This document shows positions 21,096 through 39,578 of a DNA stretch of 64,000 nucleotides, piece after piece; the stretch's first letter is position 1, and every line of letters starts with the position of its first letter. The stretch lies in contig OZ244197.1 of the NCBI GenBank assembly GCA_965216785.1, forward strand, positions 2,976,001 to 3,040,000, written 5' to 3'. Position numbers and translations under genes: made by a program. The stretch comes from Thermodesulfobacteriota bacterium. GTDB lineage: Bacteria > Desulfobacterota_D > UBA1144 > Nemesobacterales > UBA2774. The notes below the pieces were generated by a model. That model had not been told where the DNA came from, ran no database searches, and saw only the letters and a program-made list of their open reading frames with translations.

Positions 21096-21107
21096 CTCTA
21101 TGTTGTG
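21090..21107. repeat. Left att-like direct repeat
   Basis: GAATACCTCTATGTTGTG; 14/18 identical to 39615-39632. Confidence 0.8.
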
Positions 21108-21205
21108 TCCTGGTTTAAGGTGCTGAGATTGTTGAGTATTAAGTGTGTTGTATCTCTTAATTGAATAATTAAAAAGGTGTAGTTTACTTCTATAGATCAA
21201 GAGAT

Positions 21206-22228
21206 CTAAGTCAAAGGATCTTCCGATATTTTTACTATGAGCTTCCCCTTATTCGTCCCTTCGAAAAGCTTATTGAGCGCAGCGGGTGCATTTTCAAGTC
21301 CTTCCACAATATCAATACGGTACTTGAGCTTACCTTCCGAGTACCACCTGACGAGATTGTTGATTCCTTCTCCATACCGCTCAGCATAGTTAAGAACTAT
21401 AAACCCTTCCACTCGAGCGCTCTTATAGAGTATGTTGATGAAATTGTAGGGGCCCGGCACAGGCTCAGAAGAATTATACTGTGATATCATCCCACATATG
21501 ACGATTCTGGCTTTAAAATTTATCTGGGCCAAAACGGCATCCAGTATTTTTCCTCCGACGGCATCAAAATAAATATCAATACCTTCTGGACAATGCTCTC
21601 TCAAACTGTCCTGGACCGATTCTGTCTTGTAATTGATTGAGGCATCAAAACCAAGATCGTCCCTAATCCATCTGCATTTTTCTTCTGTGCCAGCTATACC
21701 TACAACACGGCATCCCTTAATCTTGCCAATCTGTCCAGCTACAGATCCCACAGCCCCAGCCGCTGCCGATACCACTAGAGTCTCACCTTCTTTAGGCTTC
21801 CCTATATCTTCAAGGCCGAAATAAGCCGCAAGTCCCGTGTGGCTGAATAGTCCGAAAAATGCGCTCAATGGCACTGCCCCATCATAGGGTATCACACTTA
21901 CATTAGTGCCGTCCGAAATTACATACTCCTCCCACCCCAGAATGCCCTGCACAATATCTCCTTCTTTAAAAGCAGGATTACGGGACTCCTCGACAACACC
22001 GATAATCAGGCCGCGCATAACCTCTCCGGTCTCGACAGGAGGCATGTAAGATTTCCTGGCATCAGCCCACAGTCTGTTAGTTGGATCTAAAGAAAGGTAT
22101 ATGTTGCGGATAAGAATCTCTCCTTCGCATAGTTCAGGTATTTTTTCTTCTTGTAACGTAAAATGCGAAAGATCTAGTCTCCCTACCGGATGTTCAACCA
22201 GAAGCCACCTACGGTTAATTTGACTCAT
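21206..22228 (-). CDS. NADP-dependent alkenal/enone reductase (CurA / prostaglandin reductase-like MDR family)
   Basis: YLSLDPT.R, VVSAAAGAVGS..GQI.KIKG, GIDIYFD.VGG, CGMISQYN, G.NKGKL motifs. Confidence 0.92.
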   Translation of the reverse strand: MSQINRRWLLVEHPVGRLDLSHFTLQEEKIPELCEGEILIRNIYLSLDPTNRLWADARKSYMPPVETGEVMRGLIIGVVEESRNPAFKEGDIVQGILGWEEYVISDGTNVSVIPYDGAVPLSAFFGLFSHTGLAAYFGLEDIGKPKEGETLVVSAAAGAVGSVAGQIGKIKGCRVVGIAGTEEKCRWIRDDLGFDASINYKTESVQDSLREHCPEGIDIYFDAVGGKILDAVLAQINFKARIVICGMISQYNSSEPVPGPYNFINILYKSARVEGFIVLNYAERYGEGINNLVRWYSEGKLKYRIDIVEGLENAPAALNKLFEGTNKGKLIVKISEDPLT

Positions 22229-22281
22229 ATTTAAAAACCTCCCTAAAAATGTAATAGGCTTATTTTCCTCTTACCCTGCTA

Positions 22282-22758
22282 TCAGCTCAACGCATACCAG
22301 GAATAGCTGACTCTGAAACGGTCTCCCTCTGGCTCAACGCTTCCCCTACCAACCGCCTGAATGCGGGTAAGCCATTGGTACTTCTCATTTGCGGTTTCAA
22401 ATCTAGGAGTTGTAAAGAGGTTCAGGTTCGGCGGTAGCTCTCCTGCAAGGAATTTATTGGCTTCGTCTTCCGACATGTCTATTACGCCCTTATACGTTAC
22501 ATATATTAAAGCGTTATCATTAGTTTCTAAAACAAGCCTTACATTAAGTTCAAAGCAGTTATCGAAGCGTATTAGTGCCGCGTCCTCGCCAAGAGGGCGG
22601 ATTTTCGCCTGTAGTTTAGGGCCGTCCACATATCCGTCTTCGCCGATTACGGGAAAAAACAGTCTTGTTCCCCAGCTACTTGACCCTATAGGAGCAGGCG
22701 CCGATACAAACGCCACAACATCGCATATATGGTCTAATTTTATTTCGTATTTAGACAT
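22282..22758 (-). CDS. DUF3237 (UPF0311) family beta-barrel protein
   Basis: G.R..FPV..G.V.GP.L, LNVRLVLETND.ALIYVTY.G, TPRFET..EKYQWL motifs. Confidence 0.85.
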   Translation of the reverse strand: MSKYEIKLDHICDVVAFVSAPAPIGSSSWGTRLFFPVIGEDGYVDGPKLQAKIRPLGEDAALIRFDNCFELNVRLVLETNDNALIYVTYKGVIDMSEDEANKFLAGELPPNLNLFTTPRFETANEKYQWLTRIQAVGRGSVEPEGDRFRVSYSWYALS

Positions 22759-22872
22759 AACTCACCTCTTCGTTTTCGTATATTTTTCAAGCAATACATC
22801 TATTATTTCTTATGGTTATGACACGGGAGAACCGTGATTGATTCCCCCGCGCTGTTTTTATCTTGTGGGTAA

Positions 22873-23151
22873 TTATCTGAAGTCTTCGCTGTGAATCTCA
22901 GCCATCGGGCTCACTTCAGAAAACGGTAGCTCAGGAATCGTATTTGTTAAAGCATCCCTAACTGACTGTGCGTCCCTACCGTCCCATTCGCAGTAAATAG
23001 CGTCAACCTGCCCTTTATCGTTTAATTTCAGCCAACTCTTTACCCAGTACGCATCTGTGCTGAGTCCAGATTTAGCTTTTTTCGCTACGGGCCCCACGTC
23101 CTCAGTATTTACCGGTGGGTCCACCGGATGTATCGCAATAAATTTTGGCAT
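22873..23151 (-). CDS. Small DUF4242/SCO4226-like protein
   Basis: MPKFIAIH...WVKSW.......IYCEWDG.DA.SVR pattern; clear GGAGG RBS. Confidence 0.6.
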   Translation of the reverse strand: MPKFIAIHPVDPPVNTEDVGPVAKKAKSGLSTDAYWVKSWLKLNDKGQVDAIYCEWDGRDAQSVRDALTNTIPELPFSEVSPMAEIHSEDFR

Positions 23152-23239
23152 TTTCTTAGCCTCCTACTATTGAATTTTATTTTTCCTGCAATATAACTCG
23201 GAGAAACTACGCTCTCCTTCTACGATTTTCATCAAATCA

Positions 23240-23719
23240 TTACGGCAGCTTCCACTCGCCGTCCCAGATAGAATAGCCTTGCGGTGTGCCGCCAATTCCT
23301 ACCTGCGCATAAAATGAATTGTTCCCGCTGATCCCTTTGTATTTCCCTGTTCCGCCTGTCCACTGAAAATCCCCTTTGCAGAGCTCAGCGCCTGTACATT
23401 TCCATACTGCAAAAGCCTTATCTCCGTCATTATCCGTGACTATACAGTACCCATGTCCATCGTGCATTCCTTTGTTAATGTCCATAGCTCCAGGACAAAC
23501 AACAGAGCTCTTATCCATAAAGCCGTTGCCCTTATCGTTGAAATTCGTCCCGCCGAACTCCCCGACGAAAAATACATGCTCAGGTCCAACTTCTACCATC
23601 TGTCCTTTTGAATACCAGCCAAATTTACTCGTGAATTTGCCTTCTTTCTCAAACGCAAAAACACTTGAAAAACTAGCCAGCATAAATAAGGACAAGGAAA
23701 AAAATATAAGCTTTCTCAT
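23240..23719 (-). CDS. Secreted hypothetical protein, possible allene-oxide-cyclase/dirigent-like barrel
   Basis: Signal peptide from MRKLIFF (GGAGG RBS); GYC..TD.DGD and GGTGKYKGISG motifs. Confidence 0.6.
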   Translation of the reverse strand: MRKLIFFSLSLFMLASFSSVFAFEKEGKFTSKFGWYSKGQMVEVGPEHVFFVGEFGGTNFNDKGNGFMDKSSVVCPGAMDINKGMHDGHGYCIVTDNDGDKAFAVWKCTGAELCKGDFQWTGGTGKYKGISGNNSFYAQVGIGGTPQGYSIWDGEWKLP

Positions 23720-23769
23720 TTTACTACCTCCTACTATTTTCGATTTAACGAATAACACTTAATTTCCTA

Positions 23770-24159
23770 CTACTCCGCAACTAACCTAAGCGCGCCTACA
23801 CCACGCTCGCTTGATACCTGACAGCTTACGTCTATGGGATAGCTAGTCCCGCTAAAATTACAGACGCTCCTCGGTTTAGAATCCAGCGTTACACCCCAGC
23901 TAGAATCAGCTACTCCCCTAACAACCGTTATATCGGAAACAGCATCATTTTCAGCATTACAACTGAGTGTAAAGCTCTTGCCACCGATAACTCCCTTCGC
24001 ACTTCCTTCAACCCGTCTGCAATAATCCGCATAACAGGTGACATTAGGCATACATGTCAACTTAATACGGACGTCCTTCTGTGATTGGGCGAAAGCACTG
24101 CTTAAGCCCAACGCACTAAGCAAAATCCCTAAAGCTACTAATGTCATCTTGTACTTCAT
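23770..24159 (-). CDS. Small secreted hypothetical protein (6 Cys)
   Basis: Signal peptide ending SAFA; first gene behind the sigma54 promoter. Confidence 0.7.
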   Translation of the reverse strand: MKYKMTLVALGILLSALGLSSAFAQSQKDVRIKLTCMPNVTCYADYCRRVEGSAKGVIGGKSFTLSCNAENDAVSDITVVRGVADSSWGVTLDSKPRSVCNFSGTSYPIDVSCQVSSERGVGALRLVAE

Positions 24160-24266
24160 AACGCACCCCCAGAATTTTTATTAAAGTGCATTTGAAAGCA
24201 CTTTTAATCTATTTCCAGACTTTACTTATCGTTCTTTCCGAAAAATAGATCTCATTTACATGCAAT

Positions 24267-24283
24267 CGCAAGCGGCATGCCAA
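24267..24283 (-). promoter_or_regulatory. Sigma54 -24/-12 promoter for the leftward operon
   Basis: Minus strand TTGGCAT-GCCGC-TTGCG matches TGGCAY-N5-TTGC; about 110 nt upstream of 24159. Confidence 0.8.
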
Positions 24284-24334
24284 CGACGTAACATTCTGTT
24301 ATCATTGCATATTAGTCTCGAGAGCAAACATTAA

Positions 24335-24465
24335 TGTAAACTATCTATACACATGTTTCCCTTTGTGAAAGCGTCTTAGATGGTATATATATTTGAATTT
24401 GTTATAGATGTGTTAAGCTTTGTTTATGTGTCTATATTTCTTTCTTTATGTCTATATAGTTGACA
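24335..24465. promoter_or_regulatory. Two TGT-N11-ACA enhancer (UAS) candidates
   Basis: TGTAAACTATCTATACA (24335-24351) and TGTCTATATAGTTGACA (24449-24465); 14/17 identical when one is inverted. Confidence 0.6.
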
Positions 24466-24493
24466 CCGAAAAAGGTTAAGGCGGGGAGATAGT

Positions 24494-26011
24494 ATGAGTA
24501 AATTAGACGCAATAATGAATATCTGTCAAAAGATCAATACTCAAAGGGAACTGCCGGCACTTTTAGAACTCGTAGTCCAGGAGACAAAAGAGCTTCTTGA
24601 AGCCGACAGATCCAGTATCTTTCTTTTGGATAGAGAAAAACATGAGTTATGGTCAATAATTACCCTTGATGGTGAGCAGATTCGTTTGGATTCACGTCTT
24701 GGAATTACAGGGGACGCTACTATTACAGGACAATCTATTAATGTAGAAGACGTCTCTCAGGATTCCAGATTTTATAAAAAGGTTGATGAAATTGCAGGGT
24801 ATCAAACTAGGAGTCTCTTGGTTGTACCGATTAAAAACCATAACGGGGTGGTCGTTGGCACGTTTCAAGTACTAAACAAAAAAAAAGGTAGTTTCAGTGA
24901 GCAAGATCAAGAGATTTTGGAACTGATAGCCGGCCATGTGGCGGCGGCAATAGAAACCACACAGCTGATCGAAGATTCAAAACAATATCAGCAAAAACTT
25001 CTTAAAGAAAACAACCATCTCTGGAAAGAGGTCGAAGGACGTTTCTTCACGCAAAACATACTAGGAACAAGTCCCCGCATTCAACACATTGTAAGATTAA
25101 TTGAACAAATCAGTGATACCTCTCTTAACGTACTCATAACAGGGGAAAGCGGAACCGGGAAAGAGCTCGTAGCCAAGTCCATACACTATAACAGTCCGCG
25201 CACAAGGATGCCGTTTGTCGCTATTAACTGTGCCGCTCTGCCTGAAAGTCTTTTAGAGAGCGAGCTGTTCGGAATAGAGAAGGGGGTAGCTACAGGAGTG
25301 GAAAGGAGAATCGGTAAATTCGAAGAGGCCAGCGGAGGAACACTTTTTTTAGACGAGATCGGAGACCTGAGCCTTACAGCTCAAGCCAAGATCCTCCGCG
25401 TATTGCAAGAAAGCAGTATTGAGCACGTAGGGGGCAGGAAAACTATACCAATAGACGTTAGAATTATTTCTGCTACAAACAAGGATCTTGAGAGAGAAAT
25501 CAAAAAGGGAAATTTCCGTGAAGATCTTTTCTACCGCCTTAAGGTAATTCATATTCATATGCCGCCTCTAAGGCAGATTGCAGAGGACATTGTACTTATT
25601 GCCAGCTACTTCATGGATAAATACTGTAAGGCAATGAAAAAAGAATCCAAGAAATTCTCACCCGAGACCTTAAGGTGCCTAACCAAGTATGATTGGCCGG
25701 GGAATATAAGGGAACTGGAAAATGAGGTAAAAAGACTGGCTGTTCTCACACCGGGCAAATTAGTACAAGAAGAGAACCTCTCTCCGCACATCAGACCCCT
25801 AATGGACAATATTGAACCCGACTCAACCAAGCCTCTCTCGCTTAAGGAAAATGTGCAGCAATTAGAAAAGCGGTTGATTTTCGAGACACTTGAGAAGTGC
25901 GGCCATAATCAAAAGCGGGCGGCCAAGGTATTGGGATTAAGCCGCCAGGGCTTAATTAATAAAATGAAGAGATATGAAATAACTGCTAATAAAATTAACT
26001 CGTTCAGCTAG
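24494..26011 (+). CDS. Sigma54-dependent activator, GAF-AAA+-Fis HTH
   Basis: PDE-like GAF (ADRSSIFLLD, DSRF..VD...GYQTRSLLVVPI, LNKK..F...D). AAA+ motifs GESGTGKE, ESELFGIEKGVATGV, GTLFLDEIG, FREDLFYRL, WPGNIREL. C-terminal HTH. Confidence 0.93.
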   Translation: MSKLDAIMNICQKINTQRELPALLELVVQETKELLEADRSSIFLLDREKHELWSIITLDGEQIRLDSRLGITGDATITGQSINVEDVSQDSRFYKKVDEIAGYQTRSLLVVPIKNHNGVVVGTFQVLNKKKGSFSEQDQEILELIAGHVAAAIETTQLIEDSKQYQQKLLKENNHLWKEVEGRFFTQNILGTSPRIQHIVRLIEQISDTSLNVLITGESGTGKELVAKSIHYNSPRTRMPFVAINCAALPESLLESELFGIEKGVATGVERRIGKFEEASGGTLFLDEIGDLSLTAQAKILRVLQESSIEHVGGRKTIPIDVRIISATNKDLEREIKKGNFREDLFYRLKVIHIHMPPLRQIAEDIVLIASYFMDKYCKAMKKESKKFSPETLRCLTKYDWPGNIRELENEVKRLAVLTPGKLVQEENLSPHIRPLMDNIEPDSTKPLSLKENVQQLEKRLIFETLEKCGHNQKRAAKVLGLSRQGLINKMKRYEITANKINSFS

Positions 26012-29000
26012 AAGTTTGAAGCTCGTCAAGCAACCCTCTGGCATCTCTTAAGTCTTTTGTCTCAAATCCTTCCTCAAACCAGCCGTAAGTCTTTGCAAGC
26101 ATCTCCCGGGCTTTTTCAGTTTTTCCTCTATTCCGTAGGCTGCTGCATAAGCTGGTAGTAGCACGAAGCTCTAATGATCTTGCTCCCAAGCTTTCCGCAA
26201 TCACGACTGCCTTTTGAAAGTAGGATTCTGACTCTTTATAATTGTCAGAAGAAATGCCGTTTGTCAGCTCCCCCTTAATTCTATGAAGCTCGGTTTCCAT
26301 CCAACGCTCACCAGAATTTTGTACAAACGCCAATGCCCCCTCTATAACCTCTAATCCCTCTTTGAATTTTCTAGCTCCAAGATATCTATCTGCTAATAAT
26401 CCCAAGAAATATGATTTTCCTGATGCTGATCCAATTGTTTCCATGTCATTCAATCCTTTGAGGATCTGCTTAATTCCGCTCTCTTTCTCATCTGTCTCGA
26501 CTTTAGACCAGCCTCTCATAATGTTTCCGAATGCTAACCAGAATGGAAACGCTTGGTCGGAGGAAAGGGAAATCAATTGCTCAGAAAGCTCTGAAGTATT
26601 ATGGCAATCGCCACAGAGCTGATAGATCACAGCCGAAAAGAATAGAGCCCAAGCCAGACTGAAAGGATGAGATAGATCACGTGCTAACGCCCGGGCTTCT
26701 TGGACTGTTATTAAACTCTTATCGGGTTTACCCAGTTGCCAAAGAGCCATCGCCTTATAAGACAAGCAAGCCACACCGGGGTCCGTCCATAACCAGGGAT
26801 AACGGGGTACTAGGGTATCGTATAGGGAATAGCCCTGTTCCATATGCTCATAACAATAATTAAACCTGCCCTGCGAATAAAACGTCTCTCCCAAAGCTAT
26901 GTGGGCCACTGTAATCAGACCCGGGTCTTTTAAGACTCGTGCCAGTCGCATCAGCCTCTCAGCCAGCTCTAGCGCCTCATCGTATTCTGCTCTTAGATAA
27001 TAAAAGACATGGAGACCCATCAATGCCGGGAAATATTGCGGAAATTCACCAAGTTCACTACACAGTTCCCTTGCCCTACTATATGTTCTCTCAACTTCTT
27101 TAGAAGAATAACCCATAATAGCTATAAGCGGTGAGCCAAGGGTAATGAGTATCTCAAGCTCTTTATTGCGGTTATCAGGAGTATCCGGCAGACTTTTGAC
27201 TAATTCAAGTGCTTTTTCTAAATGTCTTATTGCCTCAATATTAGCACTATGGCCTATCGCCTTTTGACCTGCTGTAAACCAATAAGAAATCGATTTTTCA
27301 AAGAGGTTTGCCTGTGTAAAATGATGTCCCAATAGCTCAGGATGATTCTCGCACTTTTCAGGGAAACTCTCTTCCAATACACGGGCAATTTTTTGATGAT
27401 ACTGCTGTCTTTTTCTTTTTGAGAGTGATTGATATGCGGTGTCTTGAACAAGTGCATGTTTGAAAATGTATGTACTATCGGGGAAATCTCCACTCTTATA
27501 GAGGAGTTCTGCCCCTTCTAGAAGCTCAAGCTGTTTCTCCAAAGCGGGTTTGTCTAATTCCGAAACAGCCTCTATCATTTCATATGTAAACGAGCGCCCT
27601 ATCACAGCTCCCAATTGTGCTAGTTCTTTCGCCATAGCAAGGCGGTCAAGTCTGGACATTAAAGAGCCGTAAAGTGTGGACGGTACTTGATCTAACGGAA
27701 GTGGTATAAAGCCCTCAGAATCGTCTGTTCTTTCTTTAATTGTGCCCGTTTCGAGGATCATTTTTGTCAACTCTTCGACGAAAAAGGGTATTCCATCTGT
27801 TTTGTTTACTATCGCGTTTGCCAATTTATCAGGAAGAACTTTGCCTCTCGTAAGATAATGGACCATTTCTTCTACTTCATATCTGTTCAAACGGTTAAGT
27901 GTGATTGATGATAAATTGGAGCTGCTAACCCAAGGCGGGATGAATTGCGGTCTAAAAGTCAGAAGAGCAAGAATTTCGGAATTTTGAGCATTCTCTACTA
28001 GGAAACTTAAAAATTCCAATGTCGAGGGATCTGACCAATGTAAATCCTCTACTATAAATAATAACGGTTGCTTTGCAGCTTCTTTAATGAGCAAGCTATT
28101 TAATGCTTCTATTGTCTCCTGTTTTTGTCTTTGAGGGCTCAAACTCAGAGGTTCATAACCATTGGGTAACGGAAGAGAAAGAAGCTCCGTAAACAGTGGG
28201 AGAGTTTCTTTAAGAGGTAAATCGTATGATTCTAAGCATTCTTCAAGTTTCTTCAGTTTTCTCTGAGCGGTATCGTCTTTACGGTAGCCCAATAAGTTCT
28301 GGAGAAAAGAACTGATAGGATTAAATGGAGTATTTTGGTCATAAGGTGAACATCGAGATTCAAATTTGTTGCATAGCTCAGGTATCAATCGTTCTTTTAG
28401 CACATCTACAAGTCTGGACTTTCCTATGCCGGCTTCACCACTGAGTAAAATCACATGTCCTACTCCATTCTTAACACCTTCCCAATGCTCTAGGAGTAAT
28501 TTAACCTCATCCTCTCTCCCCACAAGTGGTGTTAACCCTTTGACGGCTGCTATATCCAGTGGACTCTCCACATCACTTCGGCGGAGTACAGAATATAATT
28601 CCATTGGCTTTGAGTAGCCTCTGAGATTATATGAACCTAAAGATTGACAGACAAAATATCCTTCTATCAGTTTATAAGTTGCCTCGCTTACTATTATGCA
28701 GTTAGGTTCGGCAATATCCTTTAACCTTGCAGCGATATTTGGTGTTACTCCCATGGCCAGGGATTCATGTTTTTCCTCTTTTTCCATTCCCCCAACAACT
28801 ACTAATCCCGTGTGAATCCCTATTCGAACATTAAGTTGCTGCTTCCTATCGAATTTTGAATTATGACGTTTTATCCCCTGGAGTATTCCCAAACCCGCAT
28901 GCATTGCACGCTTAGCGTCATCCTCGTGGGCAATCGGATAACCAAAATAAGCTAATACTCCATCGCCTAGATACTGTGCGATATAACCGTCAAAACTTCT

Positions 29001-29159
29001 TATGACTTTAGAACAAAGCTCTTGATAGATTAGTATTAATTCGCGCAATTCTTCAGGATCTAATCTCTCTGATAGAGTAGTCGAATCGACCAGATCACAA
29101 AACATTACGGTTAATCGACGTCTCTCAATTTCTTTGCCCTCGGGTTTATTATTACCCAT
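26004..29159 (-). CDS. Class III adenylate/guanylate cyclase - STAND/AAA ATPase - TPR protein
   Basis: TVMFCDLVDST, YLGDGVLAYFG, RIGIHTG, PNIAARL; Walker A GEAGIGKS, Walker B IVEDLHWSD, G.PFFVEEL, YIFKHALVQD; helical repeat tail. Confidence 0.93.
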   Translation of the reverse strand: MGNNKPEGKEIERRRLTVMFCDLVDSTTLSERLDPEELRELILIYQELCSKVIRSFDGYIAQYLGDGVLAYFGYPIAHEDDAKRAMHAGLGILQGIKRHNSKFDRKQQLNVRIGIHTGLVVVGGMEKEEKHESLAMGVTPNIAARLKDIAEPNCIIVSEATYKLIEGYFVCQSLGSYNLRGYSKPMELYSVLRRSDVESPLDIAAVKGLTPLVGREDEVKLLLEHWEGVKNGVGHVILLSGEAGIGKSRLVDVLKERLIPELCNKFESRCSPYDQNTPFNPISSFLQNLLGYRKDDTAQRKLKKLEECLESYDLPLKETLPLFTELLSLPLPNGYEPLSLSPQRQKQETIEALNSLLIKEAAKQPLLFIVEDLHWSDPSTLEFLSFLVENAQNSEILALLTFRPQFIPPWVSSSNLSSITLNRLNRYEVEEMVHYLTRGKVLPDKLANAIVNKTDGIPFFVEELTKMILETGTIKERTDDSEGFIPLPLDQVPSTLYGSLMSRLDRLAMAKELAQLGAVIGRSFTYEMIEAVSELDKPALEKQLELLEGAELLYKSGDFPDSTYIFKHALVQDTAYQSLSKRKRQQYHQKIARVLEESFPEKCENHPELLGHHFTQANLFEKSISYWFTAGQKAIGHSANIEAIRHLEKALELVKSLPDTPDNRNKELEILITLGSPLIAIMGYSSKEVERTYSRARELCSELGEFPQYFPALMGLHVFYYLRAEYDEALELAERLMRLARVLKDPGLITVAHIALGETFYSQGRFNYCYEHMEQGYSLYDTLVPRYPWLWTDPGVACLSYKAMALWQLGKPDKSLITVQEARALARDLSHPFSLAWALFFSAVIYQLCGDCHNTSELSEQLISLSSDQAFPFWLAFGNIMRGWSKVETDEKESGIKQILKGLNDMETIGSASGKSYFLGLLADRYLGARKFKEGLEVIEGALAFVQNSGERWMETELHRIKGELTNGISSDNYKESESYFQKAVVIAESLGARSLELRATTSLCSSLRNRGKTEKAREMLAKTYGWFEEGFETKDLRDARGLLDELQTSS

Positions 29160-29444
29160 TGTCTAACCTCTTTACTCCGATCAAAAATATTAGCCGCATA
29201 AATACATTAACCTTTCAGACTATTTAAGACCCTATCTTATAATAATATAAAAATCATCAACATATAATTTGATACTTTCCGACTAGAATACGGAGTTCTA
29301 AGATTTTAATTTAGATTTTCAACAGAGAACCATATATAAATAAGGTTAGTAGTAAGGCCAGCACGCCTTGTACTCATTTTGATCTGACGTAATCTTATAC
29401 TTTTGAATTTCATCGCACCGTGTATTTTATATTTAGGTGTCTAA

Positions 29445-29496
29445 TGTCCTAGATATCGACACTCTCGCCCCCAATGTTATGTCATCAGGTTAGATA
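29445..29496. promoter_or_regulatory. Two TGTC-N9-GA[CT]A enhancer candidates
   Basis: TGTCCTAGATATCGACA (29445-29461) and TGTCATCAGGTTAGATA (29480-29496), upstream of the sigma54 promoter. Confidence 0.45.
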
Positions 29497-29527
29497 ATTT
29501 TTGATTGGTTTGAGTGTATTACCTTGA

Positions 29528-29544
29528 TTGGCATATAGATTGCA
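29528..29544 (+). promoter_or_regulatory. Sigma54 -24/-12 promoter for the IPTL-CTERM gene
   Basis: TTGGCAT-ATAGA-TTGCA, about 100 nt upstream of ATG 29645. Confidence 0.82.
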
Positions 29545-29644
29545 CATAAAAAATATTAGGAAAAGAAGATTAATATAATGTATTGGTATAGTTTGAAGAA
29601 GTATAGTTGAGTTATTTAAAAAAAATTCTTAGGAGGTAGAGGAA

Positions 29645-30517
29645 ATGAGAACGTTAAGAAACTTTTTTGTGCTCAGTGGTTCAAAATCCCCTTTGTTACT
29701 TATCAGCTTTGCTATGGTGAGTGTTTTGCTATTGATGACTACTCAAGCCCAGGCCGTAGCTTCCGGCACGCTGTTTTTAATGGATGACGTAGGGGACAAT
29801 TCTCTATACACGGTCAATACAACTACGGCTGCCTTGACTCTGGTCGGACCGGGCGGCTGCGACGGGCTTGCGCCCAGTGAAGATCCGACAAACTTCTTAT
29901 ATTGTGCTAATAACGTTCCGAACTTGTTTACAGTTGCAACAGACGGTAGTGGCCTTACATTCGTGGCTCCTATTGGCGGTGACGCTAACAGAGGTTTAGC
30001 TTTTAATACATCAAATGGCATGCTGTACGGAACCGATAATCAAGTCTTTGGGACTATTGACACGACAACAGGTGCTTTTTCGCCTTTAGCATCTCCGCCC
30101 GAAGAATCAGAGGCCTTGGCGGCTGATCCAAATAATAATCTGATTTACGCACTTGAAAGGGACGATAATGGGGATTTAATGGTCTACGATATCGGCGCTA
30201 ATACATGGGGTATTATTGGACCCACCGGTGTTGCTGACGGCGTACAAGCGGGCTTAGCCTTTGATCCGATAACTAATATCCTCTTTGCTGCTGATCGAGA
30301 TGGGGGTCTATACCGGATCAATCCATCAAATGGTGAAACAGTATTTATAGGGGACACCGGCATAGATGATCCGGTCGGCCTTGCATTCGTACCTAGAGAA
30401 ATATCTGCTATCCCTACTATGACACAATGGGGCATGATCATCTTTGTAGTGTTTGCAGGACTAGCAGCACTCTATTATATGAGAAGACGTCTGTACAAAC
30501 AGAGAGCGAGCTCTTAA
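29645..30517 (+). CDS. Exported beta-propeller-like protein with IPTL-CTERM sorting signal
   Basis: Signal peptide, repeated GLAF/LAAD-P...LY blades, C-terminal IPTMTQWGMIIFVVFAGLAALYYMRRR. Confidence 0.85.
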   Translation: MRTLRNFFVLSGSKSPLLLISFAMVSVLLLMTTQAQAVASGTLFLMDDVGDNSLYTVNTTTAALTLVGPGGCDGLAPSEDPTNFLYCANNVPNLFTVATDGSGLTFVAPIGGDANRGLAFNTSNGMLYGTDNQVFGTIDTTTGAFSPLASPPEESEALAADPNNNLIYALERDDNGDLMVYDIGANTWGIIGPTGVADGVQAGLAFDPITNILFAADRDGGLYRINPSNGETVFIGDTGIDDPVGLAFVPREISAIPTMTQWGMIIFVVFAGLAALYYMRRRLYKQRASS

Positions 30518-30689
30518 CAAAGTATCTAAATTTCTAGCCCAGCTTTATAATGCTTTCTGTACTCTCATTGGTTCTCTCTATATTACCGTTGCTTTGGGGA
30601 TTTTTTTTGGATTTGGGTGCTTTTTCAAAACAATTAAGAAGTATATTTAAGTTGGTAATTGTTCAAAAAAGACAAGAGGAGCGGGAGCA

Positions 30690-31016
30690 ATGAGGCGAAG
30701 GAGATGGGATTCTAAAACTAAAACGAAGATAGTACTTGATGGTTTATCTGGAAGACCAGTCTCAGAGATATGCAATTATTACGGAATACATCAAAACCAA
30801 TACTACACCTGGCGTGATAAGTTCCTATCTGAAGCTTATAGAGCCTTTGAATCTAAGAATGACATTGGAGAAATAGACCGTCTTCGCAAAGAGAACAAAG
30901 AACTAACAAAAATAATCGGTTCAATCTCTGTTGAATTAAAAAAAATAGAGGACGAGTTAATATGAGAAATCAGTCTGACTCTGTAGCTCTGCGTAACGAA
31001 CATCTGATTTGCTAAG
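30690..31016 (+). mobile_element. IS3-family transposase remnant (OrfA intact, OrfB truncated)
   Basis: HTH_Tnp_1-like OrfA 30690-30965 (K.KIVL.GL.G..VSEIC..YGIH.NQYY.WR), A8 slippery run at 30938-30945, -1 frame stops after ~25 codons. Confidence 0.85.
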
Positions 31017-31051
31017 TGGCCTGTCTCAACAGCAGAATGAAGGTAATTCCG

Positions 31052-31158
31052 TGTACTGCTCATCTTTTTTAATATTCTATTTAAGCTTCATTATGTCTTC
31101 TTAAGGGTTGTAAAGAAGGGATATAAATTAGTGGTTTTGTGAGCATAACGTAAGCGTG
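31052..31158. repeat. Repeat copy 1, IS150/IS3-end-like unit
   Basis: TGTACTGCTC...TAAAGAAGGGATATAAATTAGTGGTTTTGTGAGCATAACGTAAGCGTG; similar to 31257-31326 and 32287-32393. Confidence 0.75.
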
Positions 31159-31216
31159 TTGAGGACTTAATCCGGGTGTTCTAATTAACTGCAGTTATTG
31201 AGTATATTGGAACTAT

Positions 31217-31237
31217 AAAAGGGAGCCGAAGCTCCTA
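31217..31237 (-). terminator. Intrinsic terminator-like hairpin
   Basis: Minus strand GGAGC-TTCG-GCTCC followed by CTTTT. Confidence 0.45.
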
Positions 31238-31256
31238 AATGTTTCCTTTAATCACC

Positions 31257-31326
31257 TGTACTGCTCCCCATTTTGTTAAACTCGATTTAAGCTTATATAT
31301 GTTTTCCTAATGGTAGAATAGAAGGG
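31257..31326. repeat. Repeat copy 2 (shorter), IS150/IS3-end-like unit
   Basis: TGTACTGCTCCCCATTTTGTTAAAC...GCTTATATATGTTTTCCTAATGGTAG..AGAAGGG. Confidence 0.72.
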
Positions 31327-31336
31327 GGTATTTTCG

Positions 31337-32270
31337 ATGAGAACGCTGGTATTTGGTGCAGGCCCACTGGGTTGTCTTTATGCACATATTCTTGGTCAGG
31401 CAGGAAAGGATGTAACGATTCACGCGCGAGGTCAACGGTACGACTTCATTAAGGCCAATGGTCTTGTAAATCACTGGAGCTAAGGGGGGCTCGAAGGTTC
31501 AGGTAGTAGATGAACTGAAGGAGGACGATGAATACGATCTCGTGGTCGTTCTCATAAGAAAGAACAAGCTACCGCCTGTGTTTGAGGTTCTTCGGGCCAA
31601 TGCCAATATCAAGAACATCCTGTTCATGGGCAACAACGCAATTGGCTTTGAGCAGTACCTGCGGCACTTGCCTCAGGAGAAGTTGCTGTTTGGGTTTCCA
31701 GGTGCAGGAGGTGGGATTAGCGAACACACCGTCCATTACGTTGATCGAGAGAAGGCAGGCGAGAAGCGGAAACCCATAACTATCGGAGAAATCAACGGGG
31801 AGACCAAGGAGAGGACGCGGATAGTTAAATCGCTGTTTGAAACGAGCGGAGTTCCCGTTAAAATTGCTGGAGATATCGATGGGTGGTTGAAGTACCATGT
31901 CGCCTTGGTTCTTCCATTGGGGAATGCCCTCTACAAGCACGATTGCAACAACTACGCTCTCGCCAAAGACAAAAAGACGATTCGGACGATGGTACGAGCT
32001 GCAAAGGAAGGCGGCAGAGTCCTGAAAGCTCTGGGATACACAAAGCGCTACCCATTCCGATTCAACCTGTTCTACTGGTTGCCCGAGATACTTAATGTGA
32101 AGGCCGTCCAGGGCCTTCTAGAAAGCAAGTTTGCGGAAGTAGGATTCGCTCTGCATGCTAGGGCGGCACGGGACGAGGTGAGGGTACTCGCAGGTGAATT
32201 CCAGAGTCTGATTGACAAGACGTCTGTAGAAACACCGAACATAGACACTCTGAGGAGCTTTATCGCATGA
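31337..32270 (+). pseudogene. Ketopantoate reductase (ApbA/PanE)-family protein, frameshifted
   Basis: ATG 31337 gives MRTLVFGAGPLGCLYAH...ARGQR (Rossmann motif) and stops at ~31483. The rest (YDLVVV.IRK, LFMGNN, GFPGAGG, WLKYHVA) is in another frame ending at 32270. Confidence 0.85.
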
Positions 32271-32286
32271 AAGAGAAAGGCCGAAC

Positions 32287-32393
32287 TGACCTGCACCCCT
32301 TTTGTTAAACAGGTCTTTGGTGCTTATATGTCTTCTGAATGGTAGTAAAGAAGGGATATAATTTAGTGGTATTGTGAGCATAACGTAAGCGTG
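32287..32393. repeat. Repeat copy 3, IS150/IS3-end-like unit
   Basis: TGACCTGCACCCCTTTTGTTAAAC...TAAAGAAGGGATATAATTTAGTGGTATTGTGAGCATAACGTAAGCGTG. Confidence 0.75.
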
Positions 32394-32467
32394 ATGCACA
32401 CTATTTTAAGTGGCTGTGATTGCCAAAGAGTTCAATCTCATACATCAAGTTAGAATATCTTTCATCA

Positions 32468-32773
32468 CTAGTTGCCATAGTCGTAGATCAGGACGCCATC
32501 TTCAATTTGAGTAGGGAGGATGATCAAGCGGGAATCCGGACGCGCCGGTCCCTTCAGATATTTCCCTTGGTTACAGTCAAATTCTGCGCCATGCCATTGG
32601 CAAACGAGCTTCTCACCAACTTTTTTCATCGGGCCGCCAAGGTGCATACATATATTCACAATTGCTTTGGGCTTACCGTGATGCTTATAGACCAGCACCT
32701 CACGTCCTAAGAAATCTATCGTTATCGTCCCTTCATCGGGTATATCCTCTTGTTTACAAAGCGGTACCTTCAT
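32468..32773 (-). CDS. Small Rieske (2Fe-2S) ferredoxin
   Basis: CMHLGGP...CQWHGAEF (CxH...CxxH); start placed at MKVPLC. Confidence 0.9.
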   Translation of the reverse strand: MKVPLCKQEDIPDEGTITIDFLGREVLVYKHHGKPKAIVNICMHLGGPMKKVGEKLVCQWHGAEFDCNQGKYLKGPARPDSRLIILPTQIEDGVLIYDYGN

Positions 32774-32789
32774 GCTAAACCCCCTATTT

Positions 32790-32981
32790 TTATAGTTTGG
32801 CAATACAATTGATTTCTACCATAAGCTCAGGGAAAACAAGACGCTCTATGCAGACAATGTTTCTGATGTCATGGCTCACCTTGCCTGAGATATATATAGT
32901 ATTTTCTACTTTCACCGCCTGGGAGTAGCCGTAATCCTGCTCCCACGGCATTCCCAGGCTCCTTGTTTCTTTATCGATCAT
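32790..32981 (-). pseudogene. RidA/YjgF-family gene with internal deletion
   Basis: N-terminal PWEQDYGYSQAVKV..TIYISG is joined directly to C-terminal L.FPELMVEI.CIA; 63 aa versus ~130 aa typical. Confidence 0.8.
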
Positions 32982-33025
32982 CTTAATGTCTCATAATGTT
33001 CTTTTGTAAATACTTCATATTTTCG

Positions 33026-33976
33026 CTAATCTATAATTAGATCCAGCGCTGTTGCCCAGCAATGTCCTTTAGTATATAAATCCGCCGCTTTTAACTGATG
33101 CCTCCATTTTTCCAATGTGATCTGAGTGCAAACTTCGCTAACCGCTTCCAGGTAAGTATTGAATGGGATATAAGGCTCCTTGGTTGGATTGTCCTTTCCG
33201 GCAAAGGAAATGGGTGGTTGAGTGATTTGCAGAGCCTTACCGGCATTACTTTGAATATCGATGATGTATTGGTGTGCTGTATCGAACTCCTCGCGTGTTC
33301 CCGGTCTGCCTACATGACCGCCTTGGAAATATTTAAAGTCGTATTCCTTTGCTTGGTCGAAGGCTTGGAAATAGCCGGGGATGCTCGCGGCTACAGCAAA
33401 GTCTTCAAACGGTACCCACCCGGGATAGAGGACATCTACTAACATCAACACCTTTTGTTTCGGCAGATAAATAAATACGTTTCCCGGAGAGTGTTGCAGA
33501 CCAGGATAGGATAATTCAACCTGCTGATTGCCGAGTTTAACGGTATGGTTGTCACTGAAAGTCACGGTCGGCAGCGGTCTATTGGGGTCATTCTTCCTGC
33601 GCAGCTCGTTAGCCGTAAGCTCATGAGCCACACGGATTACATCGTTTCCAAATAGCGAAGACCCGGCTGTATGATCAGCGTGATGGTGACTGTAAATAAA
33701 GTATTTAACAGGTTTGTCAGTTACTTCACGGATAGCATCTTGTAATTTGTCTGCATAAGAACGCGGAGCGTCGACTACAATAACGCCTTCGTCACTGACA
33801 ATAAACATCGAGTTGTAGAGACCGTCAGTAACCCAATAAGCACCTCCGCCATAACTTCCAATATGATAACCTTTCGAGTCTATTACCGGGTTCTTGATCG
33901 TTTGATTGGATGCATATGCCGACCACCCTGATAAAACGATTAAGCAACTGGTTAATACTATGTAGAATATTTTCAT
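33026..33976 (-). CDS. Secreted metallo-beta-lactamase-fold hydrolase
   Basis: Signal peptide, VIVVDAP, YSHHHADH (HxHxDH), HSPG, GGHVG. Confidence 0.88.
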   Translation of the reverse strand: MKIFYIVLTSCLIVLSGWSAYASNQTIKNPVIDSKGYHIGSYGGGAYWVTDGLYNSMFIVSDEGVIVVDAPRSYADKLQDAIREVTDKPVKYFIYSHHHADHTAGSSLFGNDVIRVAHELTANELRRKNDPNRPLPTVTFSDNHTVKLGNQQVELSYPGLQHSPGNVFIYLPKQKVLMLVDVLYPGWVPFEDFAVAASIPGYFQAFDQAKEYDFKYFQGGHVGRPGTREEFDTAHQYIIDIQSNAGKALQITQPPISFAGKDNPTKEPYIPFNTYLEAVSEVCTQITLEKWRHQLKAADLYTKGHCWATALDLIID

Positions 33977-34029
33977 ATCTTTATCTCCTTGTTTTACTCA
34001 TATTCATTTACATCCTTTCACAATCAATT

Positions 34030-34353
34030 CTAGGACTCGAGTGGGAATCCCGCCTCGGTCCAATCCTGCTTACCTTCGACGTACTCGTAAACTTTTTCAT
34101 AGCCTAAAGCCTCAAGAGTCCTGGCAGCTTTAGTTGAGTTCTGACACTCGGTACTAGCACAATAAACTACTATTTTTGCTTTCTTATCGGGAAGCAGCGT
34201 ATCTGCCTTCTCTTCTATTTCCGTATAATCGATCTGTATAGATCCGGGCAGATGCGCCTCCCTCCAGTACTTTTCGGGTAGGGCTTCTACTAAAGTTAAG
34301 CCATGCCCGTTATCTAATGCATTCTTCAATTCGTGTCTCGTAATGTTCTTCAT
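34030..34353 (-). CDS. Rhodanese-like domain protein
   Basis: HLPGSI, IVVYCASTEC, Y..GK.DW..AG.P motifs. Confidence 0.9.
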   Translation of the reverse strand: MKNITRHELKNALDNGHGLTLVEALPEKYWREAHLPGSIQIDYTEIEEKADTLLPDKKAKIVVYCASTECQNSTKAARTLEALGYEKVYEYVEGKQDWTEAGFPLES

Positions 34354-34379
34354 TTCAAGACCCCCTTATTTGTTTATTA

Positions 34380-34395
34380 TGTTGCAGCTGCAACA
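34380..34395. promoter_or_regulatory. MarR operator candidate 1
   Basis: Perfect palindrome TGTTGCAGCTGCAACA, 27 nt upstream of the rhodanese start. Confidence 0.75.
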
Positions 34396-34537
34396 AATAT
34401 AAACTTATAGATTATTGTTGACGTAAAAAGGATTCAAGATTTATACGTGAGCATAATTACGGCTTTAAAATATTCAGATTTGGGATTAAATAAGATGATT
34501 AAATACGATACAAAAAACCGGAAATAATTTGTTTTGG

Positions 34538-34987
34538 TTATCCTTCGAGAGTTTTTCTAATTCTCCTTATATGTTGTATAAAGTCGTCCAGCTCTTTTTT
34601 ATTAAAGTTAGACAGGAAGTATTCTTTTAGAACATCGTAGTACACAGGCCACATTTTCCTTCTTACGTCACGGCCTTTTTTAGTTATTACAGCAACTACG
34701 CCCCTTGCATCTTCTTCGCAATCCTCTCTTACGACCAGACCTGCCTTTTCAAGCCGTTTAATCGTTCTTGTGACATTATATCTGGTTAGTAAAACTCGAT
34801 TGCCTAATTCAACAAACCTCAATCTCCCGTCATCACTCTTGTCGAGCTCTAATAATACGTCATACCAGGAATAGGGAGGCAAATCTTTATTTTTCAGCTC
34901 AGCTTCAACTTTTGCTAATAGCTTTTCAGATGATAGTACAAGTCCAACCCATGCTTCTGTTTCCTTGCCACTAAGTTTTTTAGTCAT
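34538..34987 (-). CDS. MarR-family transcriptional regulator
   Basis: WYDVLLEL, VTR.I.RLEKAGLV.R..C.EDARG...IT..G; start placed at MTKKL (ORF track extends to 35005). Confidence 0.92.
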   Translation of the reverse strand: MTKKLSGKETEAWVGLVLSSEKLLAKVEAELKNKDLPPYSWYDVLLELDKSDDGRLRFVELGNRVLLTRYNVTRTIKRLEKAGLVVREDCEEDARGVVAVITKKGRDVRRKMWPVYYDVLKEYFLSNFNKKELDDFIQHIRRIRKTLEG

Positions 34988-35008
34988 AGTGGAAATTTTA
35001 TACAAATA

Positions 35009-35024
35009 TGTTGCACACGCAACA
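35009..35024. promoter_or_regulatory. MarR operator candidate 2
   Basis: TGTTGCACACGCAACA directly upstream of the MarR gene; same TGTTGC-N4-GCAACA pattern as 34380. Confidence 0.75.
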
Positions 35025-35162
35025 ATTTTGTTTTATAAATATAAATACTAATGTGATTGTGATTACCTCAAGGTACATGAAAGATCACATAATTATATTT
35101 ATCTACGTGAGCTAGTCCTAGTATAAAAACATAGCATTGTTATAAAATGATCAATACTTGTA

Positions 35163-36041
35163 TCATTGGGAAAAAGCCGTTTCTAGCCAAGATAGAAAAA
35201 TTCGTACTTTTTCTTCCTTTCGTTTTTCAGGTATGCAAAGAGCTGTATAGGATGCACCGTCAAGCTTCACGTCTGCGCGATATGGAGTTAATAAATTACG
35301 GCTAACCAAGTCGTCGACAAGGACAGAACTTGCCAGTGCTATTCCCTGACCAGCCATTGCAGCTTGTAATACATGCTCTTCTTCAGCAAATCTTAATAAC
35401 TTAGGATCATCAATCTTTATGGCTGCTGCTCCAAGCCATCTGTCCCAATTTACATCAGACATAACTTCTTGCTGCCAAGCCGTTTCAATGAGTTGCAAGT
35501 CTTTTAGTCCTTCATCAAGCGGAAGCAAATAAGGTGAGACATATGCACCAAAAGTTTCAGTGATCAATGTTGTAGCATCCAAATCCTCATATGGTCCATG
35601 GCCATAACGTATCGCAATATCTACTCTTCTATCTTGTTTAAGGTCGATTGGCTTAGTTGTGGTATCCAGCTGTACACTATAGTTTGGATTTGATGCGTAT
35701 AGCTCTGCCAGCTTTGGTACCAGCCGTAATGTGGCAAACGATGCGGTAGTAGAGACATTGATAACAGTCTCAAGCGAAACTATGTGTTCCAATCCGTTAC
35801 GAATGTCTAAAAATGCGCGTGTTAGGATAGGCGCTAGCTCCTTACCAGCGGTAGTGAGCTCGATTGATCGCACCTTTCTGACGAATAATGAAATATTTAG
35901 CTGGGATTCAAGTGTACGTATTTGATGTGATACCGCAGCCGGTGTAACAAATAATTCCTTTGCTGCCGCTTTAAAACTTCCTAGTCTGGCAGCAGATTCG
36001 AATGTCCTTAGGATAAATGGTGACGGTATGCGGCTAAACAT
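35163..36041 (-). CDS. LysR-family regulator (GcvA-like)
   Basis: LR.FESAARLGSFKAAA.EL.VTPAAVSHQIR.LE and DIAIRYG motifs. Confidence 0.93.
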   Translation of the reverse strand: MFSRIPSPFILRTFESAARLGSFKAAAKELFVTPAAVSHQIRTLESQLNISLFVRKVRSIELTTAGKELAPILTRAFLDIRNGLEHIVSLETVINVSTTASFATLRLVPKLAELYASNPNYSVQLDTTTKPIDLKQDRRVDIAIRYGHGPYEDLDATTLITETFGAYVSPYLLPLDEGLKDLQLIETAWQQEVMSDVNWDRWLGAAAIKIDDPKLLRFAEEEHVLQAAMAGQGIALASSVLVDDLVSRNLLTPYRADVKLDGASYTALCIPEKRKEEKVRIFLSWLETAFSQ

Positions 36042-36051
36042 AATTATCTCC

Positions 36052-36076
36052 TATAGATTAGTTATACTAATCTATA
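36052..36076. promoter_or_regulatory. Inverted repeat between the divergent LysR and RidA genes (LysR box candidate)
   Basis: TATAGATTAGT-TAT-ACTAATCTATA, perfect 11-bp arms. Confidence 0.65.
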
Positions 36077-36180
36077 ATCAAATTATTCTCCTTTGTCAAT
36101 TGAATTATACAAAAGTATAATACATCTATAATGATGCTTACAGAGAGATATCTGAAAGACTTTTACAAAGGAGAAATAGA

Positions 36181-36594
36181 ATGAAAATTGAAGGTATATC
36201 CACTCAACCTGACCCCTACGCACCATACCTGCTGTCGCAAGCTATAAAAGCAGGTCCGTTCGTGTTCGTCTCCGGACAAGCTGGTTATGATAGCAATTCA
36301 AAAATCGTGGAAGGTGGTTTCACTGCTCAAGGTGAGCAAGCATTCAAGAATTTAAATCGGGCTCTAGTGGCTTCTGGAAGCTCATTAGAAAACGTTTTGA
36401 AGGTCACGATATTCGTAACGGATATGAGCCACTTCAAAGATGTGGTCGATCTACGAAGAAAATATTTTTCAGAGCCCTATCCTGCGGACACAATAGTTGA
36501 GGTTAAAGCACTCTATTCCCAGGAAGTAATGATAGAAATAGAGGCCGTCGCGCTAATAAGCAGGAAAGATGAAAGTACCCCAGATTCTATATAG
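36181..36594 (+). CDS. RidA/YjgF/UK114-family protein
   Basis: SQAI.AG.FVFVSGQ, VLKVTIFVTDM, YPA.T.V.V..L...IEIEAVA. Confidence 0.9.
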   Translation: MKIEGISTQPDPYAPYLLSQAIKAGPFVFVSGQAGYDSNSKIVEGGFTAQGEQAFKNLNRALVASGSSLENVLKVTIFVTDMSHFKDVVDLRRKYFSEPYPADTIVEVKALYSQEVMIEIEAVALISRKDESTPDSI

Positions 36595-36631
36595 GGACAA
36601 GTATATGAAACTCAGGCTTATGGGGGTTTAA

Positions 36632-38702: not shown

Positions 38703-38853
38703 CTATCTATATTCAAACACCTGTTAATGCTTTAGTTAACCAGAATATGAAAAAGATTCCGGCTATAGATTTAAAATTAAATTTATACGGTGAACGGGAA
38801 TATCTAGTCCAGAATTGTTATTAAAATGGTCTGCATTCTATTAGATTAATAAA

Positions 38854-39267: not shown

Positions 39268-39578
39268 GTTGTATCCCTCCTAATACTTACCCATATCACA
39301 ACATTAAAATTTGATCAAGATTTTTTGTCTGTCTCAAATAAGACTTCCTAGAGAAATCAATATGGTAGGCTTTGAATACTGACTTTACTTAATTTCGATT
39401 GACTGTAGTACGGCACATTTTTTAATTAGCTCAACTTTGACCAATATATACTTTCCGAATCATAGAAAAGAACGGCTACAAAATTCCTTTATTTTGATTA
39501 CAATGTCAGTATGATGTGCTCTATTTTAAGTTGCTTTGATTTTTGACAATTTACTTCTTGTATCTAAGTTTAATTCTA

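Follow-up and report, generated by a model that had tools for sequence, protein, structure and literature searches.

A candidate cyclic-nucleotide to sigma-54 module: a cyclase-STAND protein and a GAF-headed activator encoded together on a mobile insert of a Thermodesulfobacteriota bacterium

Introduction

Can a bacterium pass a cyclic nucleotide signal directly to sigma-54-dependent transcription, without CRP? The question is raised by a block of genes at positions 21206-30517 of a 64,000-nucleotide stretch of a Thermodesulfobacteriota genome (assembly GCA_965216785.1, contig OZ244197.1, positions 2,976,001 to 3,040,000; the whole stretch is called the window), in which a class III cyclase fused to a STAND ATPase and TPR repeats is encoded beside a GAF-AAA+-HTH activator. 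A first-pass annotation had proposed a self-contained, portable circuit in which the TPR sensor switches on the cyclase, the product binds the GAF domain and sigma-54 promoters on both outer sides are activated. The logic resembles that of cyclic AMP (cAMP) and CRP, a nucleotide messenger acting on a DNA-binding protein; CRP has a cNMP_binding domain and works with sigma-70, whereas the reader proposed here is predicted to be a GAF domain with sigma-54 as output.

Comparative sequence analysis supports the pair being a real, lineage-conserved module of a cyclase-STAND protein and an activator with a cyclic nucleotide (cNMP)-type GAF, located on a mobile insert and served by an operator footprinted in orthologs. 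In our judgement the messenger mechanism, leading from the cyclase over a cNMP and the GAF activator to sigma-54, is slightly on the probable side; that the activator is a cNMP reader at all, whatever the source of the nucleotide, is rather likely. Features going beyond the first-pass annotation are a GVATGV loop in the activator, the insertion of the block into dprA and another locus of the host genome at which the two genes are paired (G000; one 3.12-Mb contig, 92% complete; probably Candidatus Dadabacteria, to judge from the source names of homologs).

Two convergent genes form the core of the locus

24494..26011, plus strand: GAF-AAA+-HTH sigma-54 enhancer-binding protein of 505 amino acids (domains GAF, Sigma54_activat, HTH_8; from Pfam, PDB matches, conservation and an AlphaFold2 model)
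26004..29159, minus strand: class III cyclase-STAND (AAA_16)-TPR protein of 1051 amino acids (domains Guanylate_cyc, AAA_16, TPR; from Pfam and motifs)

The genes converge and share the 8 bp 26004-26011, being re-found at the positions given before. The rpoN gene is chromosomal, lying about 24 kb to the right of the block and outside the insert, so that the circuit is not self-contained in this respect.

The activator combines a cNMP-type GAF with a GVATGV loop

All three Pfam domains of the activator exceed their cut-offs, giving it the layout of group 3 enhancer-binding proteins, with the GAF at residues ~5-155 and a C-terminal HTH of the Fis type. The AlphaFold2 model (mean predicted local distance difference test score 86.2) shows the GAF, a long linker helix (136-183), the AAA+ domain and the HTH, and a Foldseek search with the full model returned the AAA+ domains of ZraR, FleQ and NtrC1, the listed ranks holding AAA+ matches only. 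The L1 loop reads GVATGV (residues 264-269) in place of GAFTGA, is kept in 118 of 120 close homologs and is accompanied in the homologs by intact Walker A, Walker B and arginine-finger motifs. Judged by these signatures, the activator is a variant subfamily of group 3 and not a canonical member. Its best NCBIfam match is nifA (TIGR01817; 399.5 bits, cut-off 528.85); as it scores under every listed NCBIfam equivalog cut-off, it is not NifA, and the label "Nif-specific regulatory protein" on homologs is unsupported.

The GAF domain retrieves from the PDB, as top match, the cAMP-binding tandem GAF of CyaB2 (1ykd; E 4.8e-40), followed by PmGH, PDE5, PDE2A, PDE10A and 5w10. GAFb of CyaB2 contacts cAMP through R291, T293, I308, T309, D356 and N359 (PMC4411481), which align, in that order, with R39, S41, I56, T57, D98 and A101 of the activator. 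Five of the six are identical or conservative (R39, S41, I56, T57, D98), including the Arg bonding adenine N1; the sixth, A101, is a mismatch at a position that is Thr or Ser in 119 of 120 homologs. Across the same 120 homologs the pocket is kept at R39 (108), S/T41 (120), V/I56 (113) and D98 (118), and the NK-F-DE motif at N128 (120), K129 (119), F134 (120) and D138 (113), its final Glu (109/120) being replaced by Q139 in the activator. The GAF motifs quoted in the first-pass annotation (D.RF...VD..TGY and an NK-F-DE-like motif) are present, and its assignment of the domain to the cNMP-binding type gains support from the CyaB2 match and from the conserved contacts.

Most of the GAFTGA-type activators and kinase-STAND-TPR-GAF-AAA fusions examined have GAFs without this pocket pattern; the nearest exceptions, L170 and L230, have canonical-type loops yet keep most of the pocket. 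Among 15 matches in 301 spirochete genomes, five carry the same GAF class fused to cyclases (L220, L221, L223, L224, L231), with the same pocket and the appearance of CyaB-like self-regulated cyclases, and one is an activator, having a GAFTDA loop and a partial pocket. In L052, L053, L154 and L156, loci of related genomes, the same cNMP-type GAF occurs without AAA+ next to larger cyclases, resembling a parallel cluster of cAMP readers. A GAF search of representative sequences was dominated by multi-GAF proteins and left unused.

The cyclase is probably active and belongs to a large STAND family

The metal-binding residues D22 and D66 and the transition-state pair N141 and R145 are all present in the cyclase, as in 118 of 123 homolog cyclase domains, so the enzyme is predicted, and probably is, active. 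The base-selecting positions Q62 and L134 align with Lys and Thr of CyaB (3r5g); the Gln is found in 108 and the motif LALG in 96 of the 123 domains. The ATP-selecting Lys and the Asp/Thr marking CyaB-type adenylyl cyclases are lacking in the window cyclase.

The remainder of the chain is that of a STAND protein (AAA_16 83.7 bits, TPR_12 55.8 bits, Walker motifs A and B at residues 241 and 367), and there is no membrane segment. STAND proteins work by ligand-gated nucleotide exchange and oligomerisation; by analogy, the TPR region may sense a ligand and thereby gate the cyclase. The TIGR03903 profile matches residues 9-1004 from profile position 281 onward with 575.4 bits, below its cut-off of 705.75, and an N-terminal kinase is missing, setting the protein apart from the TOMM kinase/cyclase fusions. 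With TIGR03903-like proteins it shares the class III cyclase, the AAA_16 STAND region and TPR-like repeats; from known cyclase-STAND-TPR proteins it differs in having neither a kinase domain nor a LuxR HTH. It is comparable to the cyclase-STAND-TPR proteins of the SWACOS clade and to mycobacterial Rv0386. The family is very large, its N-terminal part having matches in at least 7,994 clusters, and no described reader for the product of such proteins was found in the literature searched.

Activator and cyclase-STAND genes co-occur within the phylum

The host genome has only two PF00211 genes, each within 8.4 kb of one of its two GAF-GVATGV activators, the two paired loci being 2.9 Mb apart in linear coordinates. 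No HTH_Crp_2 domain scores over the cut-off in this 92% complete genome; its two cNMP_binding proteins, one dehydrogenase-like and one a stand-alone protein of 168 amino acids, do not have the make-up of CRP/FNR regulators. This agrees with the earlier proposal that the module needs no CRP. A class I cyclase was not found in the genome, which has one weak CYTH match, and its seven Metallophos genes are candidates only, none being identified as a phosphodiesterase.

Of all 120 genomes of the phylum, 15 encode both genes, two the activator only and two the cyclase-STAND only (one being a fusion), with one GAF-only match excluded as non-activator; the remaining 101 have neither. The phylum has 23 activator genes, of which 14 have a cyclase-STAND gene within 10.5 kb, with about 0.5 expected; at control activator loci any cyclase is nearby in 1 of 79. 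The controls come from a GTDB scan with alignment A1, in which generic AAA+ patterns gave 80 loci including a single true ortholog. In the window's own family, three genomes have both genes, one the activator only, two the cyclase-STAND only and 27 neither. The convergent layout recurs in L037, L140, L145 and L032.

A fixed pair as a rule for the whole family fails in two other classes (those of G120 and G121), in which the activators mostly have no adjoining cyclase. Since the link mostly vanishes outside the phylum, the activator family is, on present sampling, a broad one and the cyclase-STAND pair a lineage speciality. Pairing is non-random within the phylum and rare in the two other classes, and "self-contained" finds little support as a general description. 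An apparent mutual exclusion with CRP/FNR (full Crp HTH in 1/17 activator genomes vs 16/103 others) was too weak to be retained.

The second locus of the host genome (C1:73000-98000; L046, L047) encodes a zinc-ribbon-cyclase-STAND-TPR protein, an SDR protein, ydhR, two SCO4226-like genes, a GAF-less AAA-HTH-STAND protein, a luciferase-like monooxygenase and the paralogous GAF activator, has six sigma-54 promoters and adjoins an integrase and phage-like genes. Because they share an operator family and would use a diffusible messenger, the two paralogous systems probably cross-talk. Elsewhere, cyclases of 279 amino acids with intact catalytic motifs lie beside GAF activators (L050:4807-5646, L141:2616-3455); their N-termini look SCO4226-like by eye, possibly representing a further input type. 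In G044 a tandem cNMP-binding and 4Fe-4S protein is encoded between activator and cyclase-STAND (L032:6467-7936), making it a second candidate cNMP reader.

Natural fusions lack the GAF and lose catalytic residues

In some genomes the two partners are joined into single AAA-HTH-cyclase-STAND-TPR chains, and these have no GAF. The catalytic Arg is lost in all 13 intact-frame fusion rows (12 distinct), and one subtype is also without the first Asp; of the unfused cyclase rows 38/42 are intact, the other four being cut or frameshifted pieces. The fusions comprise two cyclase subtypes and nest at separate places within one activator clade in a quick version of the activator tree. Examples are L035:8816-13162, L036:520-4842 and L042:2528-7180, and the proteins P0124, P0126-P0132, P0134 and P0135. 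The simplest reading would be that covalent linkage made messenger and reader unnecessary; from fusions having dropped both the GAF and catalysis we infer that the unfused pair uses a messenger.

A conserved operator lies upstream of the left sigma-54 promoter

24267..24282, minus strand: sigma-54 -24/-12 promoter facing the left cluster (exact consensus)
29529..29544, plus strand: sigma-54 -24/-12 promoter of the IPTL-CTERM gene (exact consensus)
24449..24465: main operator palindrome (rank 1 of 349,315; footprint in orthologs)
24335..24351: second operator-like box, near the left promoter (10.6 bits, rank 11 of 349,315)
29445..29461: TGTC-N9-GACA box preceding the right promoter by 84 bp (3.3 bits, rank 159; weak fit)

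Within the window, exact TGGCAY-N5-TTGC sites are limited to the two outward-facing promoters, which had been described before as near-consensus; among 5000 Markov shuffles of intergenic DNA an exact site arose in 7 on the left and in 1 on the right. In the window's clade, 23 of 30 rows have the palindrome TGTCAAC-N3-GTTGACA closely preceding the activator gene; by the same criterion it is present in 1 of 24 rows from the two sister clades, and the Dadabacteria sister clade has a related variant. In six orthologous loci (L140, L141, L142, L143, L145, L158) it precedes a divergent sigma-54 promoter by 155-217 bp. The window copy at 24449 lies 28 bp ahead of the start of the activator gene and precedes the left promoter by ~170-180 bp; it is likely both an enhancer and an autoregulatory site. 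An operator matrix built from 23 sites of other genomes was scored on 349,315 intergenic positions and at 54 sigma-54 promoters of the host genome; the left promoter and five promoters of the second locus take the first six places, and the predicted regulon does not extend beyond these two loci. The left promoter as a sigma-54 output thus gains a conserved upstream operator.

The right side fared differently. Boxes of the form TGT-N11-ACA are present on both sides, as the first-pass annotation had stated (24335, 24449, 29445), and the left ones fit the family operator, but the right box reaches only 3.3 bits. The bare motif, with 18 occurrences in the window, was discarded as evidence, being also described as a generic enhancer-protein motif (PMC4641369); the stricter TGTC-N9-GACA occurs three times in the window (24449, 29445, 42564). 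With its weak box and with its promoter ranking 12th of 54, the right promoter is weakly supported as an output of the activator; the surface-protein gene is a possible target, and another enhancer protein in the insert (36632-37768) could serve it.

A third close SCO4226-like paralog elsewhere in the host genome (C1:2135559-2136002) has a sigma-54 promoter, a TGTC-N9-GACA box and rhodanese and MarR neighbours as in the window's insert; its box scores -5.5 bits with the operator matrix, and the gene is a doubtful regulon member. An intergenic matrix site of 19.7 bits at C1:2621812 lies near a GAF-like frame of 91 amino acids, possibly a remnant of a third activator. The scan for sigma-70 promoters and terminators gave chance-level results only.

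A model for the module and its alternatives

These data are consistent with a model according to which the cytoplasmic cyclase-STAND-TPR protein, gated by its TPR/STAND part upon some ligand, would make cAMP or, less probably, another cyclic nucleotide; this would be bound by the GAF of the neighbouring GVATGV activator, and the bound activator would then open sigma-54 promoters with TGTCAAC-N3-GTTGACA, chiefly that of the left five-gene cluster, and may regulate its own gene through the 24449 box. That cAMP is the product, and that binding activates rather than inhibits, are suppositions of this model. A wider version, which we hold as tentative and somewhat doubtful, sees a mobile CRP-free cassette: an NLR-like STAND protein would be the sensor and produce a cNMP (possibly not cAMP, given the Gln/Leu site), the readers would be widespread, hitherto undescribed GVATGV cNMP-gated activators, and the cassette would at least twice have been short-circuited by a fusion discarding GAF and cyclase chemistry.

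Several observations weigh against the model. With Gln and Leu at Q62 and L134 instead of the Lys and Thr of CyaB, the product is not predictable from the sequence. The activator GAF deviates from the family consensus at A101 (Thr in 110/120), Q139 and T72 (Ala in 92%), and the protein has a longish end branch in the quick tree, so that the affinity of its GAF may differ; PmGH, the closest single-GAF structure, is without a stated ligand in the part of its description available. The GVATGV loop is without the Phe touching sigma-54 in PspF, and for DVUA0100, activation through such a loop is a prediction only (PMC4641369). The top rank of the 24449 box is partly circular, as the consensus of the training boxes was drawn after the window's own box had been seen; the ranks at the second locus are free of this circularity. 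Twelve of the 15 double-positive genomes are from one family, and the counts are therefore not independent. Both host loci are low-GC islands, and hitchhiking can thus inflate their co-location. Outside the phylum, any cyclase is nearby at 1/28 loci in the class of G121 (loci from 28/37 matches) and at 4/12 in the class of G120 (12/12 matches), several of these loci being on short contigs, and none of the cyclases is a cyclase-STAND. Finally, all four catalytic residues are still present in L209, a frameshifted fusion, and the fusions show that STAND-to-AAA coupling can run without a messenger, which keeps a direct-contact mechanism alive.

Such a mechanism, in which the STAND-TPR part controls the activator by contact or co-oligomerisation in the manner of MalT while cyclase and GAF are structural or vestigial, draws on the covalent AAA-HTH-STAND fusions with a dead or no cyclase and on kinase-STAND-TPR-GAF-AAA fusions being common. 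We regard it as improbable, since the unfused cyclases are catalytically intact and the unfused activators keep the full nucleotide pocket, which the GAFs in STAND fusions do not have, and since activators outside the phylum mostly have no STAND neighbour. The pocket likewise speaks against the genes being unrelated island cargo with a GAF sensing a different small molecule, possibly one on which the reductase or small oxygenase-like outputs act: it matches cNMP-binding GAFs residue by residue, and repeated adjacency and independent fusions are found in different chromosomal settings. Both loci being low-GC inserts that also hold unrelated regulators, outputs varying from locus to locus and the pocket-region substitutions of the window copy would fit the cargo explanation, which remains clearly unlikely.

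A rather unlikely alternative is that the activator is a general cAMP reader, substituting for CRP at sigma-54 genes, and the adjoining cyclase-STAND one travelling supplier. In its favour, the two other classes have orphan activators, present as single copies, whose pocket is the same and whose operator often is; in relatives a genome can have as many as 10 cyclase-STAND genes, many of them distant from an activator; and the adjoining cyclases are of several subtypes. In the host genome, by contrast, both cyclases adjoin activators and the predicted regulon is confined to two loci, and three other genomes share the convergent layout together with the Q/LALG subtype. It is highly improbable that the GVATGV protein is unable to remodel sigma-54 and acts at its boxes as a repressor or sigma-70 regulator. 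In its favour, most GAFTGA mutants fail to activate (PMC7175178) and F85 and T86 of PspF contact sigma-54 (PMC3467059), and the main box is just before the activator's own start; against this stand the conservation of GVATGV in 118/120 homologs together with intact Walker and arginine-finger motifs, and the six loci in which the box precedes a divergent sigma-54 promoter by 155-217 bp.

The messenger model would, if true, represent a direct route from a cyclic nucleotide to sigma-54 transcription, for which no description was found in the literature searched, and would show how CRP-less bacteria use class III cyclases. It would provide a candidate reader and a simple reporter for the large and mostly unstudied cyclase-STAND-TPR family, making product and activating ligand testable, and the system would allow one to ask if sigma-54 can still be driven by a loop that lacks the conserved Phe.

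Relation to known systems

The activator shares its GAF-AAA+-HTH layout with the group 3 proteins NifA, NorR and FhlA (PMC7175178) and, by prediction, also their ligand control and their action on -24/-12 promoters from upstream palindromes; unlike these, it has a cNMP-class GAF and a GVATGV loop. The known ligands of group 3 are 2-oxoglutarate, nitric oxide and formate, and do not include cyclic nucleotides. With FleQ and VpsR, enhancer proteins that respond to cyclic di-GMP, the window activator would share control by a nucleotide messenger; unlike it, these two are not known to have a cNMP-type GAF. For the GAF domains of Leptospira EbpA, the available part of the source states no ligand (PMC12655853).

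DVUA0100 of Desulfovibrio vulgaris, the sole relevant report in a full-text literature search for GVATGV, is a predicted sigma-54 activator with the same loop; it differs in that its N-terminal region is called an unknown sensing domain and its targets are type III secretion genes (PMC4641369). The word "cyclase" is absent from the text of that paper. The GAFs of Anabaena CyaB2 and of the phosphodiesterases PDE2, PDE5 and PDE10 (PMC4411481; 1ykd, 2zmf, 5w10) have the same pocket residues and NK-F-DE motif as the window GAF, but regulate an enzyme in the same chain, whereas the window GAF heads a transcription activator. An activator with a cNMP-binding GAF, or a neighbourhood of this kind, was not found in the literature searched, which consisted partly of titles and abstracts and lay mostly outside subscription papers.

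Predicted output genes

23770..24159, minus strand: protein of 129 amino acids with a signal-peptide-like N-terminus and no family, the first left gene (Pfam and sequence features)
23240..23758, minus strand: exported protein of an unnamed family (no Pfam match; Atlas 0.94 to unnamed clusters)
22873..23151, minus strand: SCO4226-like small protein (PF14026 at 23.1 bits, below the cut-off of 28.5)
22282..22758, minus strand: DUF3237 protein (Pfam)
21206..22228, minus strand: CurA-like NADPH-dependent medium-chain reductase (Pfam ADH_N_2, ADH_zinc_N)
29645..30517, plus strand: exported protein of 290 amino acids with an IPTL-CTERM sorting signal (TIGR04174 at 21.3 bits, cut-off 20.5)

Because the five left genes (21206-24159) are co-directional with gaps of 11-114 bp, a single left transcript is plausible; the operon claimed earlier thus stands in its gene order and short gaps, its unity as one transcript being plausible only. 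A terminator-like stem is found at 23200-23217 within the cluster, such stems being fewer in the scan than in shuffles. For the protein at 23240-23758, named Atlas clusters (0.77-0.79) give a weak lead to DUF3224 or allene-oxide-cyclase-like barrels, and the reductase scores 386.6 bits with NF058644, below the cut-off of 440. The right-hand gene was correctly described as encoding a surface protein, to judge from its hydrophobic N-terminus and the IPTL-CTERM signal over the cut-off; it has paralogs elsewhere in the host genome.

SCO4226-like genes recur beside many related loci, where the outputs otherwise differ, including small exported proteins, collagen-repeat proteins, methyltransferases and oxidoreductases. 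The common output theme is, as far as the predicted functions tell, small-molecule redox handling and the export of small proteins.

The block resides on an insert splitting dprA

21096..39614: 18,519-bp insert carrying the whole block and splitting dprA (empty site in a congener, L215; junction sequences)

The hexamer GTATTC is repeated at both junctions, and the insert has a GC content of 42% compared to 46% genome-wide; it contains a transposase remnant, and an integrase was not found. The second locus also has a low GC content and abuts an integrase-bearing element. The empty site in the congener supports the description of the block as portable. No RNA data set was listed as holding the stretch; contigs of four other sequencing runs match the stretch in short pieces, none spanning the whole.

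The dprA halves (20748-21095 and 39579-40385, minus strand) correspond to a gene that is intact in the congener and in two other relatives; the C-terminal half retains an open frame from an upstream TTG, and natural transformation may be impaired by the split. The second sigma-54 activator of the insert (36632-37768) consists of AAA+ and HTH with a short or truncated N-terminus. The transposase remnant and short repeated intergenic elements, located at 30690-30965, 31044-31326 and 32296-32396, have copies elsewhere in the genome.

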